10,940 bases of DNA from Ignavibacteriota bacterium. Lineage in GTDB: Bacteria; Bacteroidota; Ignavibacteria; UBA10030; UBA6906. The notes beneath the pieces were generated by a model, which ran no database searches, was not told the origin of the DNA, and was given only the letters and a program-made list of their open reading frames with translations. Position numbers and translations under genes: made by a program. Shown here piece after piece: positions 2-10,165 of this stretch (within the stretch, counting starts at the first letter, position 1; every line of letters starts with the position of its first letter). The stretch spans positions 1 to 10,940 of the forward strand of contig CAWDEM010000003.1 of the NCBI GenBank assembly GCA_963801355.1, written 5' to 3'.

Positions 2-2299
2 ACCGCCGAGTGTCAGACGGAATGCTTTTCTGCCTGTGTCAAAGCCCTTCTCGGTTCTCGCAAATGTCGAGAGTGGAACCATTCCGATCCCCTGCCGTGC
101 AAGCCCCGAACCGACCCAATCAAGCGACAGGCCTGCAGGGAGTTTGTCGATGATCATCAGGGGATACATGCTTCCTGTGGGGGGCTCGATGTGAATCCCG
201 AACGGATTTCTGTCGGCGGGAAGGTTGTGCAGTGCGGAGGTCAATGCCTCCATCCGTTCGTACAGGAGAGTGTTCCTCAGCCGCCAGTATGCGCGCGTTG
301 TCTCCAGGGAATTGCGATAGAAGAGATACGAGAGAAGAATCGCCCCTGTGTTCGGTCTTATTGAAGAAAGAATCGCGCAGAAGCGCTCACGAAGGGTTGC
401 ATCCCTGATCTCAACGACCGAGAGTCTTGCACCGGCCATACAATCGGTTTTGGACATCGAATGCACTGTTATAAGCCGGCTTGCCTGTCGTGAAGTCAGG
501 CCGCCCGTCGCGACCAGTTCATCCGCAATCTGACGCAATGTCGGGATTTCGGGCAGGTCAGCGACTGGCGCTACGTTCTGGTAGGAGAGATCGTCAATGA
601 CGGTGATCTCCTTCCCCAGCAACTTCCGCAAGAGCTCTTTGACGGTGGCAATATTGAAGACCCTGCCGGTGGCGTTGTGCGGGTTGTTCAGAACCACTGC
701 ACCATGGTTGCTCCATGATGCATCGCCGCGCAGGCGCTCCTCCACCGCATTCACAATGCCATCCCCGTCCAGATCCAGGTCCGGCGTAAGAGGTACGGCG
801 TATGTCGCCGGAAAGCAATGCTCATATGTCCAGCTCAGATCCGGCATCACCACATCGGTGATTCCACAATGGAAGCCCAGCAGACTCAACGCCGTTCGTG
901 CTGAGCCGCTCACCACAACGCAGCTGCGCAGGTCATACTCCGGGTGGTGACGGACAAATGCAGCAATCAACGACTGCTCCAGATCGGCATGCCACTGCGG
1001 ATCATCAACGTTAGCCGCCAGGGTGTTCACAAGTCCGCGCGGGTCATACTGCAGGAAGTGATCGAAGGGCAGGTCCGGCATGTGTGCCGGAACCCTTCCA
1101 GAATGCGGTTGACCCGTGCATCGAGTCCTGCCAAAGCAACGGTGAGCCGTTGCTCCGTGTGCCGCAAGCAGTGACTCGACTCTCCTTCCGATCTGTCCGC
1201 TTGCTCGCACAAGCGCTTGTTCCCCGCCTATGTTGAATGCCGGGGGTTCAAGAGGCGGCTCAACGGTGAGCGGTGTGCGATCCGGCACTGCGACTTCGTG
1301 GGGTGCATGATGATCCAGCAGGTACGTCAGCAGTTCCACTTCCGACGCGGAAGGGGTCCCCTTCAGCTGAAAATGCAGGGTCTCAAGCAGCTGGAGGTAC
1401 TCAGCATTTCCGGCGACAAAGACAATCGAGAGGGCGGCAAGCCGGGGCGAAAAGATACCCGGCGTAAGAAACCGGATCACGCGGTCAATCAGTCGGGCTT
1501 CACGGCCGAGAGAGAGGTGATTGGGCGCATCGTTCACTTCGACAAAGAAGATGGGCGACGCAAGGCTGAGCTGACGGAGTGACCGGCGCGTCTCCTCGTT
1601 CGTGATCGCGCCAAGGATAAGGAACAGCGGCCGGGATGGTGCTTCTGTTGCCGCCGCACGAACACGACTCAGGGCATCATGTTCATCATCCGGAAGTGTT
1701 TCGAACTCCAGACCGTTGAAAGACTTTACGTGCGGTGGGAGATCAACATGAAACAGCAGGACTTTTGCAGGCAATGTCGCAAGAAATGCCGAGAGCGCAT
1801 GGAAGAACACACGGAGTGTCTCGATGCGTCCCCCGGACGCGAGTATGATTTCGCGGCGTTCCGAGGCCTTGCCGGTGTCATACACAAGCGGCTCCTGTTG
1901 TTGCTGGAGCCAGTTGCTGAATGCCAGTACCAGCGGGGGCGGTGTTGCACGTGCAAAACCGCCGCGGGGAAGATATGGTGCACTCTTGCGGACCAGATTC
2001 ACAAACAGATCGAACAGAGGCCGGTCCGTGTCGGCCCAGTCCAACGCCTGCATCATTCTCTCGGGGAACTCATCCGTGAGCTCCTCATCACGTATGTCAA
2101 GTCCGGTGATCGCCCTGAGGTATGCTGAAGAGAGGCGTGTTTCCTGAACGGGGTTGCCGATGTGGAAATTCACACGGTCTTCAGGCGCGACGGCCGCGGC
2201 AGCCGTGGTCTCGCTGATCTCGGAGACCTTCGCAGCCCTTGTGGGTTTTAGGCGGAATGCTGTATGAAGAGCAGGGTAGTTGTGGCCATGGAACGTCAT
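2..2299 (-). CDS. Large PLP-dependent aminotransferase class I/II-fold protein with two tandem modules (partial, >766 aa, 3' end outside window)
   Basis: Manual translation finds no stop in this minus frame from 2323 down to the window edge; the first ATG is at 2299 (MTFHGHNYPALHTAFRLK...). The C-terminal module has VVLNNPHNATG (688-665), IDDLSY (595-581), HSMSKTDCMAGARL (Lys codon 449-451, about aa 617) and AFRLTL near the edge. The N-terminal module has RVNFHIGNP, APYLPRGG and EIILASGG. It is absent from the ORF track, probably because it has no stop in the window. Confidence 0.9.
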   Translation of the reverse strand, partial: MTFHGHNYPALHTAFRLKPTRAAKVSEISETTAAAAVAPEDRVNFHIGNPVQETRLSSAYLRAITGLDIRDEELTDEFPERMMQALDWADTDRPLFDLFVNLVRKSAPYLPRGGFARATPPPLVLAFSNWLQQQQEPLVYDTGKASERREIILASGGRIETLRVFFHALSAFLATLPAKVLLFHVDLPPHVKSFNGLEFETLPDDEHDALSRVRAAATEAPSRPLFLILGAITNEETRRSLRQLSLASPIFFVEVNDAPNHLSLGREARLIDRVIRFLTPGIFSPRLAALSIVFVAGNAEYLQLLETLHFQLKGTPSASEVELLTYLLDHHAPHEVAVPDRTPLTVEPPLEPPAFNIGGEQALVRASGQIGRRVESLLAAHGATAHRCFGRTRCTGQPHSGRVPAHMPDLPFDHFLQYDPRGLVNTLAANVDDPQWHADLEQSLIAAFVRHHPEYDLRSCVVVSGSARTALSLLGFHCGITDVVMPDLSWTYEHCFPATYAVPLTPDLDLDGDGIVNAVEERLRGDASWSNHGAVVLNNPHNATGRVFNIATVKELLRKLLGKEITVIDDLSYQNVAPVADLPEIPTLRQIADELVATGGLTSRQASRLITVHSMSKTDCMAGARLSVVEIRDATLRERFCAILSSIRPNTGAILLSYLFYRNSLETTRAYWRLRNTLLYERMEALTSALHNLPADRNPFGIHIEPPTGSMYPLMIIDKLPAGLSLDWVGSGLARQGIGMVPLSTFARTEKGFDTGRKAFRLTLGG

Positions 2300-3305
2300 G
2301 CGAGGCCCGGAGGGCGAATCGTCTCACCCGCAGCGCGGCTCCACTATCTTCTTCTCTTCGGTACGCCTCAATCGCACCCTGCACGAACGTGTGGAACATC
2401 GCCAGCAGATCAGTTCCCTGCATTGTTTCCCCCGGGGAGAGCGACACCACCGTGCGTGCGTTCTTCAGAGACTGGCTTGCCTCTGCGAGGCGTGCCGCCT
2501 GGGGTGTGAGCAGCAGAAGTTCGGGACTCTCCTTCAGCAGTCGCATTTCTTCCTTCTCAAACTCAAGCTGTTTCTTCTTCAGCTCAAGTTCATGTGTCGT
2601 CCGTGCTTCGGCCAGCATGGCGTCTTGTTCAAGTTCAGACTTCTTGAGATCGTAACGTTTCAATGCGAGTTCATGTTCGAGGAGTGCAACCTCTTCATCC
2701 GCCTTCACACGCGCCCTGGCTTCGGTGATGCGGGCTTGCTGGTTCAAGGTTTCCGTCTGCTCGAGAATCCTCGCATGCTCGCGTTGACGCATCGCTTCGG
2801 CAATCTGTGTGTTCACCGGCTCAAATGAAGTGATGGCAAGATTCACGATTTCCAGCCCGAGCGCGTTATTGATGTCTTTGAACCGTTGCTGGAGATGTAC
2901 ACGGAGCCCGTCCGACGATAGTTCTTCGATCCCTCTCGCTTCCGTATATTCTTTTACGTACCCCAGGAGGAGCGTCTCAAGTTCCTTGCCGGCTCTCGCG
3001 ACCGAGCCGGCTGTCCAGCCACCTGCGCGTACGAGGGAGGCGAGGTGGCTCATCGACGCAGCCACAGTCACGGCGATCTTGAAGCGCACATCCAGGTTTC
3101 CTTTCGCGGATCCCTCGATGGTTTGCGTAAACGAATGTGCGGTGCGCGTGATGGGAGTGCTGAAATGCCGGGGGTAGAAGCGTCCCTTCCGGACCCCGAC
3201 GCCGTCGTGTGTCTCATACACCACGATTTGATCGGGTTTGCGGAACCGGTACTCGAAGAGCACTGCCGCTATGATAAGCGCGCCAATGATCAGGGCGAAT
3301 TCCAT
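2181..3305 (-). CDS. SPFH/band 7 (flotillin-like) membrane protein; true stop probably TAG at 2344-2346
   Basis: N-terminal TM helix (FALIIGALIIAAVLF), band-7-like core (LGLEIVNLAITSFEP) and a long A/E/K/R-rich coiled coil. SD AGGAGG at 3314-3319. The tail after ...EAYRREE looks non-protein-like and overlaps the next gene by 119 nt, suggesting an indel in the GAA-repeat tract near 2350. Confidence 0.8.
   Translation of the reverse strand: MEFALIIGALIIAAVLFEYRFRKPDQIVVYETHDGVGVRKGRFYPRHFSTPITRTAHSFTQTIEGSAKGNLDVRFKIAVTVAASMSHLASLVRAGGWTAGSVARAGKELETLLLGYVKEYTEARGIEELSSDGLRVHLQQRFKDINNALGLEIVNLAITSFEPVNTQIAEAMRQREHARILEQTETLNQQARITEARARVKADEEVALLEHELALKRYDLKKSELEQDAMLAEARTTHELELKKKQLEFEKEEMRLLKESPELLLLTPQAARLAEASQSLKNARTVVSLSPGETMQGTDLLAMFHTFVQGAIEAYRREEDSGAALRVRRFALRASHDVPWPQLPCSSYSIPPKTHKGCEGLRDQRDHGCRGRRA
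2295..2325 (+). repeat. Degenerate copy of GTCATTGCGAG-type palindromic (REP-like) element
   Basis: GTCAT-GCGAGGCCCGGAGGGCGAATCGTCTC aligns with the 4104 copy (TGTCATTGCGAGGCCTGAAGGGCCAAGCAATCTC) and has an inner GCCC/GGGC stem. Its CAT is the predicted start codon at 2299. Confidence 0.6.
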
Positions 3306-5686: not shown

Positions 5687-7055
5687 CACTTCCCCTCCTT
5701 TCCCGGCATTGCGGCGAGTTCTTTCTTCCCTTGCGGAACGATGCTCAGCACAACCCGGTTATTGTCGCGCTAAATACGTTGCCGCCGCTGTTTGAATGTC
5801 GCCGGGATCAAGTGCCTTGTAGCGCGAAAAGTCTTCCTGAAAGTAGTCAGGATTGCCGGTCTGTGTGAAATATCCGTTCAGCAGATCCACTTTTCCGCCG
5901 AAGCCGCCGACTGATTCAAGCCGTCCGAGGAACGACGCCTCGTACTGATTCACGGCGCGGTCAAGTTCTCTCTTCTCCGGTGCGGCAGACTGGAGTGTGT
6001 GCAACTCCTCCTGGATCACCTTTTCCAGTTCACTCAGCGTATGGCCTGCCCGCGCCGTGGCTACGATCTGAAACGAAGACCCGAGCTGGCGGGATCCCTG
6101 ATACGCGTAGACATCCTGGGCAATCTGTAGATCGTACACCAGGCGTTTGTAGAGCCGTGAGTTCTTTCCGTTGGCAAGCACACTTGCCACCATATCCAGT
6201 TCCGCATCCCCCGGTGTAAAGAGTGCCGGGGAAAGCCAGGCCATATAGAGGCGAGGCAGGGAGACTCGGTCTTCAAGGACGACACGTTTTTCCCGGTCGA
6301 TGAAAGCAACGGGTGCGTCCGGGGGCGGCGACCGGGGGACCTGAAGGTATCTCGCCGAACCATTTTTCAACAAGTGCACGGGTCTTCACCGGGTCAATAT
6401 CACCCCCGATGCAGAGGCTCGCATTATTCGGACCGTAGTACTTCTTGAAGAAATCCACCACGTCTTCATAGCTTGCCGCGCTGAGATCCTCCATCGAGCC
6501 AATAGTTGGCCAGTGGTACGGATGATCCGGTGGGTAGAGATTTTCCCCGAGAGTCAGTTCGGCCATTCCGTACGGACGGTTCTCGTACGATTGTCGTCTC
6601 TCGTTTTTCACGACGTCCCGCTGCCCGTCGACTTTTGAAGGAGACATCGCCTGCACCAGATACCCCATCCGGTCCGAGTCGAGAAAGAGCGGCAGTTCCA
6701 GCGCGTTGCTGGGGACATTCTCCCAGTAGTTCGTGCGGTCGGAGTTGGTCGAGCCGTTGTTGTCCCCGCCAACCTGTTCCAGCCACTGATCGAATTTCCC
6801 TTCCGGCACGTGGGCTGAGCCTTCGAACATCAGATGTTCAAAGAGGTGGGCAAAACCTGTCCGTCCGGGTTTTTCGCGTCCCGAGCCGACATGGTAATAG
6901 ACATTCACGCTGACGATGGGCGTGGAATGATCCTCATGGAGGATCACCGTAAGCCCGTTGGAAAGAGTAAATCGCTGATATGGCACCGAAATCCTCGTGT
7001 CGGCTGCCGTTGCAACGGCGGCACAGAGGAAAAGCGCCAGCAGAGCGCGTTTCAT
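5686..7055 (-). CDS. Peptidase M16B family zinc protease, active subunit (about 455 aa after repairing two frame breaks)
   Basis: Signal peptide MKRALLALFLCAAVATAA, inverted zinc motif HLFEH and distal VVKNERR. ORFs 6273-7055 and 5759-6379 join at the G5 run 6321-6325 (PPVAAP|DAPVAFIDREKRVV). A second break near 5770 restores YLRDNNRVVLSIVPQGKKELAAMPGKEGK* with TGA at 5686-5688. Confidence 0.92.
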
Positions 7056-7235: not shown

Positions 7236-8045
7236 ATGGACCCCGACCAAAACCGCATACAGCGGGCGTTGAATGAACAGAAGAAGAACGAACTTGAGAA
7301 ACTCTACGGAGCGCGGTTTTCTGACACTCCTAACGGTATTCCACCCGAGGCCGAAGGCGAATGGCTTGACTACGTCACCGAGTTTGAACGGCAATTCGCC
7401 GAAAATGGACAGATTACCGTAAGGGAATTTGTGGGCAGTCCGGAACTCCGTCCGCTCGCAGCCATTCCTCCGGAAGAACTCCCGGCTGCCACGGAAGCCC
7501 TCATGGAACTCCTGTTCGACAATAACATCCAGGTGCATTTTGACCGGGAGGTGAGCGATGCGGAGGTCTACCGTTTTGTTACCGAGGAGTTGTTCCGCGA
7601 GAAAATGGACAACATCCGCATCGAGCAGATGATGCACACGTTTGTCTACGATCAATTCCATCCTGATGAGGCTTCGCGTGTGCGGCGTGATGCGGAGTTC
7701 TTTCTCAACGCACTCTTCTTCCGCGACCGCCGCATGATATGGCAGATGCTCAGCAAGAAAGAGGTAAAGGATTTCGCAGGAAAGAAGTGCCCCGCTGAGC
7801 TGTTCATGCTCACACTCAACGAGATCTACAGAAAGGTTGAATCCTTCACGTCGCACCTGATGGAAGTGACCTCCTGCGACGTGGATATGCCTCGCGCAGA
7901 GGTTACTGCTTCATTGACATGGGCTGGGATTGCTGCGGATACAAAGAAGCCGGTTGGCGGTTCAGGCACCGCTTCCGTGCAATTTGTGCAGAGTCCGGCG
8001 GGTGGATGGGATGTGGTGGGGGTGACGGTACCGGGGTGGAGGTAG
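7236..8045 (+). CDS. Hypothetical protein, acidic, 269 aa
   Basis: Intact ORF with SD AGGAGG about 5 nt upstream and protein-like composition. It fills the gap between divergent and convergent neighbours. I recognise no functional motif. Confidence 0.85.
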   Translation: MDPDQNRIQRALNEQKKNELEKLYGARFSDTPNGIPPEAEGEWLDYVTEFERQFAENGQITVREFVGSPELRPLAAIPPEELPAATEALMELLFDNNIQVHFDREVSDAEVYRFVTEELFREKMDNIRIEQMMHTFVYDQFHPDEASRVRRDAEFFLNALFFRDRRMIWQMLSKKEVKDFAGKKCPAELFMLTLNEIYRKVESFTSHLMEVTSCDVDMPRAEVTASLTWAGIAADTKKPVGGSGTASVQFVQSPAGGWDVVGVTVPGWR

Positions 8046-8184: not shown

Positions 8185-10165
8185 TTAAGCACTGAGCTTG
8201 CTCGCCTTAACCTCTTTGGCGTTTTTCACCACAGGCGCCGGCTTTCCTTCCTGGAACGTCGGGTTATACTGCGGCACCAATACATGGAACAGATCCGTCA
8301 CTGCTGCGACGTCACCCTGGCGGGCGGCTTCGATCAGTGTTGTGACATCCATCTGCAGGCGTGACCTGTGGTGGGACATGGGATTGCTGGCAGAGATTTC
8401 ACCCGAGAGATCACGCGCATAGTTCCTGCGTGTGACCATCACCTTGGAATGGGACGTCTCTTCTACGTGATCTGTCTCGTAGAAAAGTTCTTCGAACATC
8501 TTTTCGCCGGGGACGAGCCCGGTGATCTTGATCTCGATCTCCTCTTCTGTGAAGCCGCTCAGCCGGATCAGATCGCGCGCAAGATCAATCACCTTGATCT
8601 GTTCGCCCATATCCAGCACAAACACCTCGCCTCCTTTGCCCATGGTGGCTGACTGGAGGATCAATTGCACGGCTTCGGGGATCGTCATGAAATAGCGGGT
8701 CACATCCGGATCTGTCACCGTCACCGGTCCGCCCATCGCAATCTGACGCTTGAAGAAAGGAACCACGCTCCCGCGGCTCCCCAAAACGTTTCCAAAGCGC
8801 ACGGTGACAAAGGCCTTCCCCGAACGGTTTGCGGCATCCTGAACGATCAACTCCGCAATCCGCTTTGTGACGCCCATGACGCTGGTGGGATTGACTGCCT
8901 TGTCGCTCGACACCATCACAAACCTGCGCACATCATACCGATCGGCGAGGTTCACCAGAACGCGAGTCCCGAGAACGTTGTTCGTTACCGCTTCGGGTAT
9001 GTTTTCCTGCATCAGGTAGACATGCTTATGTGCTGCAGCATGGAAAACAACGTCCGGCCGGAGGGTGCGGAACACCTGCTCCATCCGTTCCCGGTCCCGC
9101 ACATCGGCAATCACCGGGACAATCTTCATATCAGGAACCGGCGACTCTGCCAGCTCCTTCATTATCTGGAAGATCGAAGTCTCCCCGTGACCGACGAGAA
9201 TCATCTCGGCAGGGCGGAAACCCTTGATCTGCCGGCAGAGTTCGCTTCCAATTGAGCCGCCGGCACCCGTGACAAGCACTCTGGCACCGGTCAGCAGAAG
9301 CATGACCTGTGTGACATCAGTTTCAATCACGCCACGGCGGAGGAGATCCTCCAATTGCACGTTCCGGACATCATCGATGCGAGCCGTTCCACGGACAATG
9401 TCATACAGTGCGGGAATGGTTTTGCTCGGTACTTTCACTTTCCTGCACAATTGGACTACTTCGCGGACGACCTTGCCGGGGGCTGTCGGCATGGCGATGA
9501 TGACTTCATCGATGTTCTGTTGTTTCACCACAAACGGAATGTCGCTCAGAGGGCCAAATATCGGCAAGCCGTAGATACGCTTGCTGCTCTTACGCGGGTC
9601 GTCGTCTACAAACCCGACCGGCACGATTCCCAGCTGCAGATTGTTCTGAAGCTCTTTCACCGTCAGTGCGCCCCCGGCTCCGGCTCCGACGATCAATACC
9701 CGGCGCTGATTGCGTGCAGTACCCTGGTCACGCAACTCCGTAAAGAGTATCCTGATCCCCAGACGGCTCCCCGAGATCCAGAATGCGGTCAAGAGGGAAG
9801 AGATGATTGGTATCGATCGTGGGAATCCCGGCGGCACAAGGCCCAAGGGCATGAGCAGACCGAAAAAGAGTACCAACTTCCGCAAGGGCCGATAGTGCCA
9901 GCGCACGAATCATCGTTATCAGGGCGGGCACGCTTGCATACGCCCAGAGTTCCGAGTAGAGATGACTCTGCACAAAAACAAGCATCTTTGCAGCAATCAT
10001 CACAACAGTATAGACCAACAGAGCATTGCTGAGCGGACCCACGATTCCTGGGTCGTCAGTGCGCAGCAGCATCGCAAGTGGCGGAATGATGACCAATCCG
10101 ACAAGATCGAAGGTCATCAAATACCGGTTTCGGAGGCTTAACAGGAGCCGGAGGTATTGTTTCAC
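8185..10165 (-). CDS. Membrane-bound nucleoside-diphosphate-sugar 4,6-dehydratase, CapD/PglF/WbpM family (about 659 aa, one frame break)
   Basis: N-terminal TM region (ORF 9728-10165, GTG start with GGAGG SD) joins ORF 8185-9906 near 9877 (ALAE|LVLFFG). Motifs IVGAGAGG, VGFVDDD, TGAGGSIGSEL, HAAAHKHV, SSDKAVNPTSVMGVTK, VRFGNVLGSRGSVVP and GEKMFEEL. Confidence 0.95.

Follow-up and report, generated by a model that had tools for sequence, protein, structure and literature searches.

The 10,940-nucleotide (nt) stretch of DNA analyzed here (hereinafter, the window) is the entire contig C3 (CAWDEM010000003.1) of the 8-contig assembly GCA_963801355.1 of an Ignavibacteriota bacterium, and its left end cuts through the frame of a large gene. 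The part of this gene that lies in the window, an open frame of 766 codons on the minus strand (2299..2), probably encodes the N-terminal 766 residues of a conserved three-part enzyme of ~1,869 residues, in which 'one and a half' aminotransferases are joined to a half that resembles phosphoenolpyruvate (PEP) carboxylase and might make oxaloacetate for aspartate. The fold of the inserted, lysine-less ('dead') aminotransferase domain, the absence of its lysine, the fusion of the parts and the conservation of this fusion are established here.

Pyridoxal 5'-phosphate (PLP) enzymes of fold-type I are obligate dimers with two shared active sites, and ordinary class I aminotransferases are homodimers of ~400-residue chains with two PLP sites; in contrast, the protein described here has two large domains in a single chain, with just one small domain and one lysine. 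The proposed order along the chain is an N-terminal segment (aa 1-59), the lysine-less large domain (aa 96-340), a long helix, and the live large domain together with the sole small domain (aa 420 to ~795). Within the chain, the dead large domain and the live one would pair in the manner of dimer subunits, so that the chain would hold a single PLP site, which the N-terminal segment and loops of the dead domain (Tyr109; Lys313-Ser317) are predicted to complete in cis.

Extent of the gene and its live aminotransferase module

The frame begins with an ATG at 2299 and is stop-free up to the left edge of the window; the plus-strand reading of 2..2299 is riddled with stops. The preliminary description, made from the sequence, had reported an open frame of more than 766 codons outside the open reading frame track, with its strand unstated, and this report is confirmed; the absence of the frame from the track is explained by its open end at the edge of the sequence, since the list includes such frames only when open ends are permitted. 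Beyond a gap of ~262 nt, the gene resumes at the end of the 3.0-Mb contig C8, which is an open 1,016-codon frame (P0091) beginning with the residues that come next in a second, 92%-identical copy of the large gene (P0002) on contig C2 of the same assembly. Counting 87 residues inside the assembly gap, the full gene has ~1,869 codons, of which the window holds the first 766 (~41%; 2..2299, minus strand); the further domains that had been anticipated beyond the window thus exist, as ~1,100 additional residues on the end of C8. The frame is not a chance one because 89 database proteins match the C2 copy at E <= 0.001 (best E = 0), colinearly across both modules. The current database annotation of a family protein is just 'aminotransferase, partial'. 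Residue numbers of the C2 copy plus 4 give those of the window.

All ten motifs quoted in the preliminary description are present in the translation of the minus strand. In the N-terminal part, these are VNFHIGNP (aa 43-50, nt 2150-2173), APYLPRGG (aa 107-114, nt 1958-1981), IILASGG (aa 151-157), FFVEVNDAP (aa 251-259) and VIRFLTPGIFSPRLAALSI (aa 274-292, nt 1424..1480), the last of which comprises strand f and the loop at the place of the SxSK lysine and holds no conserved Lys. The remaining five, NNPHNATG (aa 538-545, nt 665-688), DDLSY (aa 569-573, nt 581-595), SMSK with Lys617 (aa 614-617, nt 449-460), GARL (aa 623-626, nt 422-433) and FRLTLGG (aa 760-766, nt 2-22), belong to the second module.

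This second module (aa 420-766, nt 2..1042, minus strand), which appears here without its final ~25-30 residues, is a live class I aminotransferase according to both Pfam and hhalign. It matches PF00155 at aa 431-748 with 50.8 bits against a cut-off of 19.7, the sole Pfam family found in the frame, and hhalign comparison with 10 aminotransferases of the same genome gives a probability of 99.2% (E 1.1e-19). The catalytic residues are retained almost without exception (in C2-copy numbering, Lys613 and Arg621 in 77/77 sequences each, Asp565 in 82/83 and Arg757 in 66/67), the live Lys and Arg are kept in 57/57 full-length proteins, and the Asn of class I aminotransferases is kept as well; the full class I/II set ascribed to this module is therefore upheld. 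In aspartate aminotransferase, the lysine forms the Schiff base, the aspartate contacts the pyridine nitrogen, and the two arginines bind the phosphate and the alpha-carboxylate, respectively. The NCBIfam matches of the live module are all sub-threshold aminotransferase matches (the best one at 26.4 bits against a cut-off of 355), so that no substrate class can be assigned to the aminotransferase. The nearest solved chains are 2egy (LysN of T. thermophilus), 2gb3, 1v2d and 1bjw. With class I aminotransferases (PF00155; of the aspartate aminotransferase, LysN and kynurenine aminotransferase-like kinds), the protein thus shares the profile of the live module, the catalytic residues and, in the models, the superposition on whole chains, and its dead module shares the large-domain fold.

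The live module is without the canonical N-terminal segment of ~40-70 residues: its hhalign match begins at column 110 of the 425 template columns, where the count includes template columns upstream of the template's likely start. In the models, the segment with VNFHIGNP (aa 1-59, nt 2123..2299, minus strand) lies on the live module as its own N-terminal segment, and thus, the chain's first ~60 residues would complete the live module rather than the dead one; VNFHIGNP, which had been taken for a signature of module 1, is predicted to sit on module 2. The H, G and P of this motif are kept in 57/57 sequences. The pLDDT (predicted local distance difference test) of aa 20-50 is 52-60 in the model without the live module and 83-90 with it, and in the predicted interface, residues 19-66 contact 655-678, 723-741 and 756-765, including the FRLTLGG arginine of the live small domain. 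Moreover, whole aminotransferase chains align to the two-module model described below over more residues than the live module holds (384 for 3aov_A, 393 for 1vp4_A and 390 for 1m4n, against at most 387), which places the first ~60 residues, in the model, at the position of a normal N-terminal segment. Unlike in ordinary class I aminotransferases, this segment is located ~360 residues away from its large domain, and ~1,070 residues follow the aminotransferase part.

The lysine-less large domain and the proposed single-chain pseudo-dimer

The lysine-less module (aa 96-340, nt 1280..2014, minus strand) was delineated from the model, the VIA superpositions and conservation as an aminotransferase large domain with seven strands. 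With 65 homologues as input, AlphaFold2 yielded a model of aa 1-384 that has a pLDDT of 85.5 and contains a seven-stranded sheet. Among the matches listed, a Foldseek search with this model retrieved only class I aminotransferases and C-S lyases (best 2x5d_D, E 7.4e-10). VIA superposed the dead module on 2x5d_A with Z 18.1 and a root mean square deviation (rmsd) of 2.9 Å over 203 aligned residues (model 102-330 on chain 61-291), and on 1bjw_A with Z 16.3 (model 99-339 on chain 54-294). As judged from the model, aa ~96-340 is an aminotransferase large domain. The PLP-transferase fold proposed for the N-terminal half was accordingly recovered; the description of this half as a PLP module holds for the large domain only, since the inserted dead part is, in the models, a large domain with no accompanying small domain and thus not a whole subunit.

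In the dead module, the loop after strand f, where genuine enzymes have SxSK, reads VIRFLTPGIFSPRL. The position at the end of strand f is occupied by T73/S12/N2 of 87 sequences and, in the alternative register suggested by hhalign, by P58/S9/K9 of 88; no column of the loop after strand f contains a conserved Lys across 65, 88 or 57 (full-length) sequences, so the loss of the module-1 lysine, noted in the preliminary description, is a family trait. Mean pairwise identities among the 57 full-length proteins are 0.578 for the dead module, with 49/326 columns invariant, 0.631 for the live module, 0.258 for the linker and 0.618 for the C-terminal half. Because the dead domain is nearly as conserved as the live module and far more conserved than the linker, it is, by its sequence, under strong selection; the term degenerate, used for it previously, fits the missing lysine but not a decaying domain. 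Two of the conserved features are of particular interest for the pairing of the modules. Tyr109, in the APYLPRGG loop, is kept in 57/57 sequences and may, by analogy, be the equivalent of the tyrosine lent by a canonical subunit to the PLP phosphate of its partner. The LKGTPSAS segment (nt 1343..1366, minus strand), whose Lys313 is likewise kept in 57/57, lies in the predicted interface, facing the loop after the live lysine.

The two-module model, which covers the first 810 residues of the C2 copy and was built with 88 homologues, has a pLDDT of 88.8 and a pTM (predicted template modelling score) of 0.86, so its parts are placed confidently relative to each other; a long helix (aa ~358-406, nt 1082..1228, minus strand) lies between the modules. 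Whole aminotransferase chains align to this model from residues 2-38 to ~785, skipping the dead domain: 2egy_B aligns with Z 29.9 and rmsd 3.1 Å over 377 of its 394 residues, 1bjw_A over 358 of 382, and, in general, the live module with the N-terminal segment superposes on whole chains with Z 28-30, rmsd ~3 Å and 340-390 aligned residues. The wide structural search returned no single-chain pseudo-dimer such as the glycine decarboxylase P-protein among the matches listed, which are all single aminotransferase chains.

When aa 1-335 and aa 403-800 were folded as separate chains in three runs with three controls, the ipSAE (interaction prediction score from aligned errors) was 0.94 in the three runs and 0.00 in the best of the 3 controls. 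The mark used for this score was reached by 116/157 solved complexes and by 2/215 mismatched pairs, counts that apply only roughly here, since a custom alignment was used. Contact agreement between the runs was at least 97%, and the pLDDT of the partners at least 88. The predicted interface pairs the homologous SGG/SGS turns (151-163 with 460-473), the loops after strand f (281-287 with 612-622, including the live Lys613 and Arg621), and the GTPSAS/RPNTGA segment with its helix (307-327 with 638-659); it also includes the live Arg757 and, in C2-copy numbering, the APYLPRGG loop (101-106) and Lys309, with 619-621 paired to 313-314. Such contacts between homologous segments make up the pattern expected of a two-fold dimer interface. 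The models therefore support a packing of the dead large domain against the live one that is equivalent to subunit pairing in an ordinary aminotransferase dimer, and the single-chain pseudo-dimer envisaged in the preliminary description gains in silico support; both the pseudo-dimer and the placement of the N-terminal segment are predictions of these models.

The combination of a dead and a live PLP domain has precedents. The glycine decarboxylase P-protein (GLDC/GcvP), which embodies the concept put forward in the preliminary description, is a chain of ~1,000 residues, both halves of which are of fold-type I, with Gln in place of the active-site lysine in the N-terminal half, and in some prokaryotes, the two halves are split into alpha and beta subunits (PMC7259800). 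The resemblance lies in the tandem arrangement of lysine-less and live fold-type I halves in one chain and is one of working principle only: unlike in the P-protein, the live half here is a class I aminotransferase, the dead half is without a small domain, and a PEP-carboxylase-like domain is fused. No GDC-P family is found among the Pfam matches, which consist of PF00155 only, and the nearest structures are class I aminotransferases. In SerTA (Ser4/Ser5) of Serratia sp. ATCC 39006, the truncated, lysine-less Ser4 pairs with the complete Ser5, and activity depends on residues of the inactive partner (PMC11726168). This pairing of a truncated lysine-less partner with a complete fold-type I protein is similar to the arrangement proposed here; SerTA differs in being encoded by separate genes, in belonging to the sugar-aminotransferase type and in forming a heterotetramer, whereas here the dead copy is inserted in the live enzyme's own chain. 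What is new in comparison with the P-protein and SerTA is the insertion of the dead domain into the chain of a class I aminotransferase, along with the PEP-carboxylase-like fusion.

The PEP-carboxylase-like half and the distribution of the family

The relationship of the C-terminal half to PEP carboxylase is indicated by profile comparison and by the order of motifs. Apart from its own cluster, the language-model neighbours of this half are PEPcase clusters at 0.87. Comparison by hhalign of 42 family sequences with 26 PEP carboxylases gives a score of 51.1 (P 1.1e-4, with a probability of only 57%) over 594 collinear columns, and the controls score lower: 22.2 for the reversed profile, 23.4 for aminotransferases, and 25.8-36.2 for six block shuffles, which preserve the motifs and break their order. 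The global-mode hhalign comparison was discarded as a meaningless 7-column end alignment.

All the motifs of PEP carboxylase (PF00311 in bacteria and plants, PF14010 in archaea), as checked in sequences fetched from the same phylum, have counterparts in the same order in the C-terminal half: TAHPTE / TVHPTQ, SWxGxDRDGxP / SFWGDWDGSxRP, PLFET / PLFED, GYSDS / AGSDLS, the Gly-rich loop, GSRPxxR / RDRPxVR, LRAIPW / LRAIxH and the C-terminal NTG / ENG. In 57/57 sequences, the His of TVHPTQ, the Glu of PLFED, the Asp of GSDLS, two Arg and the terminal Gly are kept; a third Arg is kept in 56/57. In PEP carboxylases, the His is catalytic, the Glu of PLFE and the Asp of SDS are metal ligands, and the Arg residues bind PEP. 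On these sequence comparisons, homology of the C-terminal half to PEP carboxylase is likely; carboxylase activity can be suggested with distinctly less confidence. Unlike PEP carboxylases, this half is below the threshold of every family, has several changed motif residues, is ~100-150 residues longer and, in the loci examined, is never free-standing, except in frame-interrupted cases. Among the matches listed by a full-text literature search, no published description of an aminotransferase / PEP-carboxylase-like fusion was found.

In a collection of species genomes, 388 stretches encode a relative of the large gene, and the best 80 of these were analyzed as loci. These 80 come from metagenome bins labelled Ignavibacteriota/Bacteroidota or Chloroflexota, along with two labelled Acidobacteria, and represent soil, sediment and wastewater lineages known there from metagenome bins only. 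All three parts are encoded in one frame in 58 of the 65 loci with room for the gene; in the remaining 7, the frame is interrupted, with the parts still adjacent and in the same order, and 15 further loci are too short for the architecture to be judged. Accordingly, the homologues at these loci are not pairs of separate genes. The protein consists of 1,798-1,961 aa in the 58 public loci and of 1,866-1,895 aa in 8 of 9 relatives within the phylum, the ninth (G041) having 1,747 aa. A 994-residue database protein (P0127) spans the PEP-carboxylase-like part only, and on the short contig L104, an 832-aa frame stops behind the live aminotransferase; genuinely split forms may therefore exist alongside the frame-interrupted ones.

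Within the phylum, 10 of the 151 sampled genomes, all of one class, encode the large gene, and 94/151 contain PF00311. The possibility of a distribution complementary to that of canonical PEP carboxylase was considered and dropped: there is no clear pattern, with ~19 of the 36 genomes of the class having neither. In the source genome, whole-genome profile searches found neither a canonical PEP carboxylase nor a PYC_OADA carboxylase domain. Elsewhere in this genome (C8:668266-670880), the gene for its best canonical class I aminotransferase is directly followed by an ATP-dependent PEP carboxykinase gene, so that this organism also pairs an aminotransferase and an oxaloacetate-forming enzyme as separate genes.

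The large gene has a conserved neighbour. In 76/76 loci that extend far enough upstream, an SPFH-like gene precedes it on the same strand: 72 have this gene directly next to the large gene, and 4 have it either within ~660 nt or as a read-through frame. In the window, this SPFH/Band-7-like gene (2181..3305, minus strand) runs into the start of the large gene, and its Band_7 match is sub-threshold (18.5 bits against a cut-off of 23.6, E 0.0022), such that it can be called SPFH-like only.

Alternative explanations and the proposed function

Several observations weigh against the reading of the protein as a pseudo-dimeric aminotransferase fused to a PEP carboxylase relative and, along with them, four alternatives have to be considered. 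The strongest one, a serious contender that we nevertheless regard as somewhat unlikely, is that the C-terminal half is not a carboxylase and is instead a PEP-carboxylase-derived domain with another substrate or a scaffolding role, in which case the aminotransferase would act on another keto acid. The C-terminal half (P0091) has no Pfam match at E <= 1, whole-genome searches with PF00311 and PF14010 give no match over the cut-off at its locus, a weak PEPcase_2 match (E 0.065) was obtained for only 1 of 10 family members, and it has no match among PDB sequences, where searches with the single protein and with two profiles, one of them dominated by aminotransferase matches, yielded no PEP carboxylase. 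A profile search of 1.84 billion representatives gave 240 matches, of which the 150 listed are all family members or fragments and reveal no remote link. Identity over the hhalign match is as low as 15%, and motifs are rewritten: the family consensus is SDLSQQ where the fetched PEP carboxylases have SDSxKD, GSGEPMQRQGG replaces GRGGxVxRGGG in the Gly-rich loop, the first Arg of which is Ser or Cys in 57/57 sequences, and ENG stands for NTG. Furthermore, one (G121) of the 10 sampled genomes with the large gene, the source genome included, also has a canonical PEP carboxylase, and the source genome encodes an ATP-dependent PEP carboxykinase, so that the fused enzyme is not needed as the sole route to oxaloacetate. 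Against this alternative, the invariant residues are those known as catalytic or as PEP- and metal-binding, and the C-terminal half is as conserved as the live aminotransferase.

Under the second alternative, which we consider rather unlikely, the dead module binds a ligand for regulation, or catalyses chemistry that proceeds without a Schiff base, and does not act chiefly as a structural substitute for a second subunit. Possible ligands are amino acids, keto acids and free PLP, whose binding could tune the live site or the PEP-carboxylase-like half; a ligand sensor had also been put forward as an option in the preliminary description. Its vestigial pocket is lined by the invariant or nearly invariant polar residues E235, R238, E254, N256, N260, R266, E267 and R276 (window numbering), which, judging from their conservation, is more than a purely structural partner needs, and the module as a whole is nearly as conserved as the catalytic ones. 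For the Lys-less N-terminal half of glycine decarboxylase, non-covalent binding of PLP has been proposed (PMC7259800). This explanation is compatible with the pseudo-dimer rather than exclusive of it, and the predicted interface already accounts for many of the conserved residues (101-106, 151-156, 281-287 and 307-316).

With respect to the fold of the dead module, profile searches give no support to its being an aminotransferase domain. When the two halves are taken separately, as had been suggested, PF00155 is found in the second, whereas the first ~400 residues match no family of the Pfam and NCBIfam libraries; a six-frame PF00155 search of the window matches nt 56-1009 only, not the dead module. 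The hhalign comparison of the dead module with the live one gives P 0.051, though in the very register proposed in the preliminary description, and that with the genome's own aminotransferases gives E 0.27. Sequence alone provides no aminotransferase link for the dead module, and the fold claim therefore rests on the predicted model.

The third alternative, that the gene in this genome is damaged or mis-assembled and yields no working product, whatever the family does elsewhere, seems unlikely. Alignment with the C2 copy shows an additional base in the window near nt 1156 and a missing one near nt 1094, and this +1/-1 pair of indels recodes aa 381-402 (22 residues, nt 1094-1159) of the linker helix, where the C2 frame resembles the homologues. 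One public-run contig, near-identical over 931-1135, carries an added base after 1097, beside one of the indel sites, and another public-run contig has an added base after 2273; no public RNA run is listed for the window, the best DNA run shares 0.14 of the sampled words, no run contains half of them, and the contigs from public runs cover the window only piecewise. The large gene is, in addition, interrupted by the assembly gap between C3 and C8, and the C2 copy is frameshifted after residue ~935, just past ...HEMIRG (C2:14165-14230), with the rest of the PEP-carboxylase-like half carried by the frame at C2:11437-14226. Other genes in the window, namely that for an M16 peptidase and the end of the SPFH-like gene, look frame-shifted too. 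However, the indel pair restores the frame and affects the least conserved part of the protein, the linker, all the catalytic motifs are intact, and single-base indels are a common assembly error; the indels in the window and C2 copies may be such errors. The presence of two large contigs together with small variants with ~90-94% identity also fits consensus problems rather than decay.

The assembly itself seems to combine two haplotypes or two strains, or else to contain diverged duplications. Across the end of C2 and the start of C1, there is a counterpart of the whole window with ~84-92% identity, the first 14.5 kb of C2 match the end of C8 at ~90-96%, and C5, C6 and C7 correspond to parts of the two large contigs in variant form, with identities of mostly 87-96% and of 83% in one piece. 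The stretch between the SPFH-like and large genes is the most diverged part between the C3 and C2 copies; the SPFH-like frame consists of 374 aa in the window and 322 aa in the C2 copy, the window lacking the stop of the latter and having ~52 extra codons that overlap the start of the large gene. The M16 peptidase gene (5759-7055, minus strand) is split into a frame with Peptidase_M16 and the start of M16_C (6273-7055) and a frame with the rest of M16_C (5759-6379), pointing to a frameshift or to an error in base calling. The window also encodes, on the plus strand (7236-8045), a 269-aa frame without a Pfam family, which is flanked by the M16 peptidase genes on one side and by a Polysacc_synt_2 (CapD-like) gene at 8185-9906 on the other. 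Downstream of the large gene (C8:3011987-3020894, C2:4-10344), there are repeated units of ~1.8-2 kb with sensor-kinase-like and response-regulator-like frames, and one C2 stretch matches two adjacent places on C8.

Finally, it appears improbable that the live modules of two chains form the usual homodimer, with the dead module packed elsewhere and the intramolecular pairing an artefact of the single-chain input: predictors fill a known dimer face with any homologous surface offered, and the packing may reflect their training on many solved aminotransferase homodimers rather than the chain's own behaviour, but the live module is without the N-terminal segment that includes the place of the lent tyrosine, so that both sites of such a homodimer would miss this residue, the dead module keeps a tyrosine in 57/57 sequences, and the N-terminal segment gains model confidence only with the live module present.

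We therefore return to the three-part enzyme with an intramolecular pair of large domains. In the proposed reaction sequence, the PEP-carboxylase-like half would convert PEP and bicarbonate to oxaloacetate, and the fused aminotransferase would convert oxaloacetate to aspartate, an assignment of substrates and product (PEP to oxaloacetate to aspartate) that is put forward tentatively, with less confidence than the architecture. The product of the upstream SPFH-like gene could possibly keep the enzyme at the membrane. Taken further, and more speculatively still, the family might represent a self-contained, membrane-tethered route from PEP to an amino acid, in which a deep, hitherto unrecognised branch of the PEP carboxylase superfamily would make a labile keto acid and hand it directly to an aminotransferase that is monomeric by virtue of a built-in dead partner, with a dedicated SPFH scaffold organising the assembly and the pocket of the dead domain perhaps serving as an allosteric or channelling site that couples both reactions.

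A lysine-less copy of the large domain inside a class I aminotransferase would be a natural single-site, single-chain version of a dimeric enzyme, and the residues held invariant in the dead copy would reveal which residues of a partner are indispensable. The fusion of such an aminotransferase to a relative of PEP carboxylase that is missed by the databases points to an undescribed junction between carbon and nitrogen metabolism.

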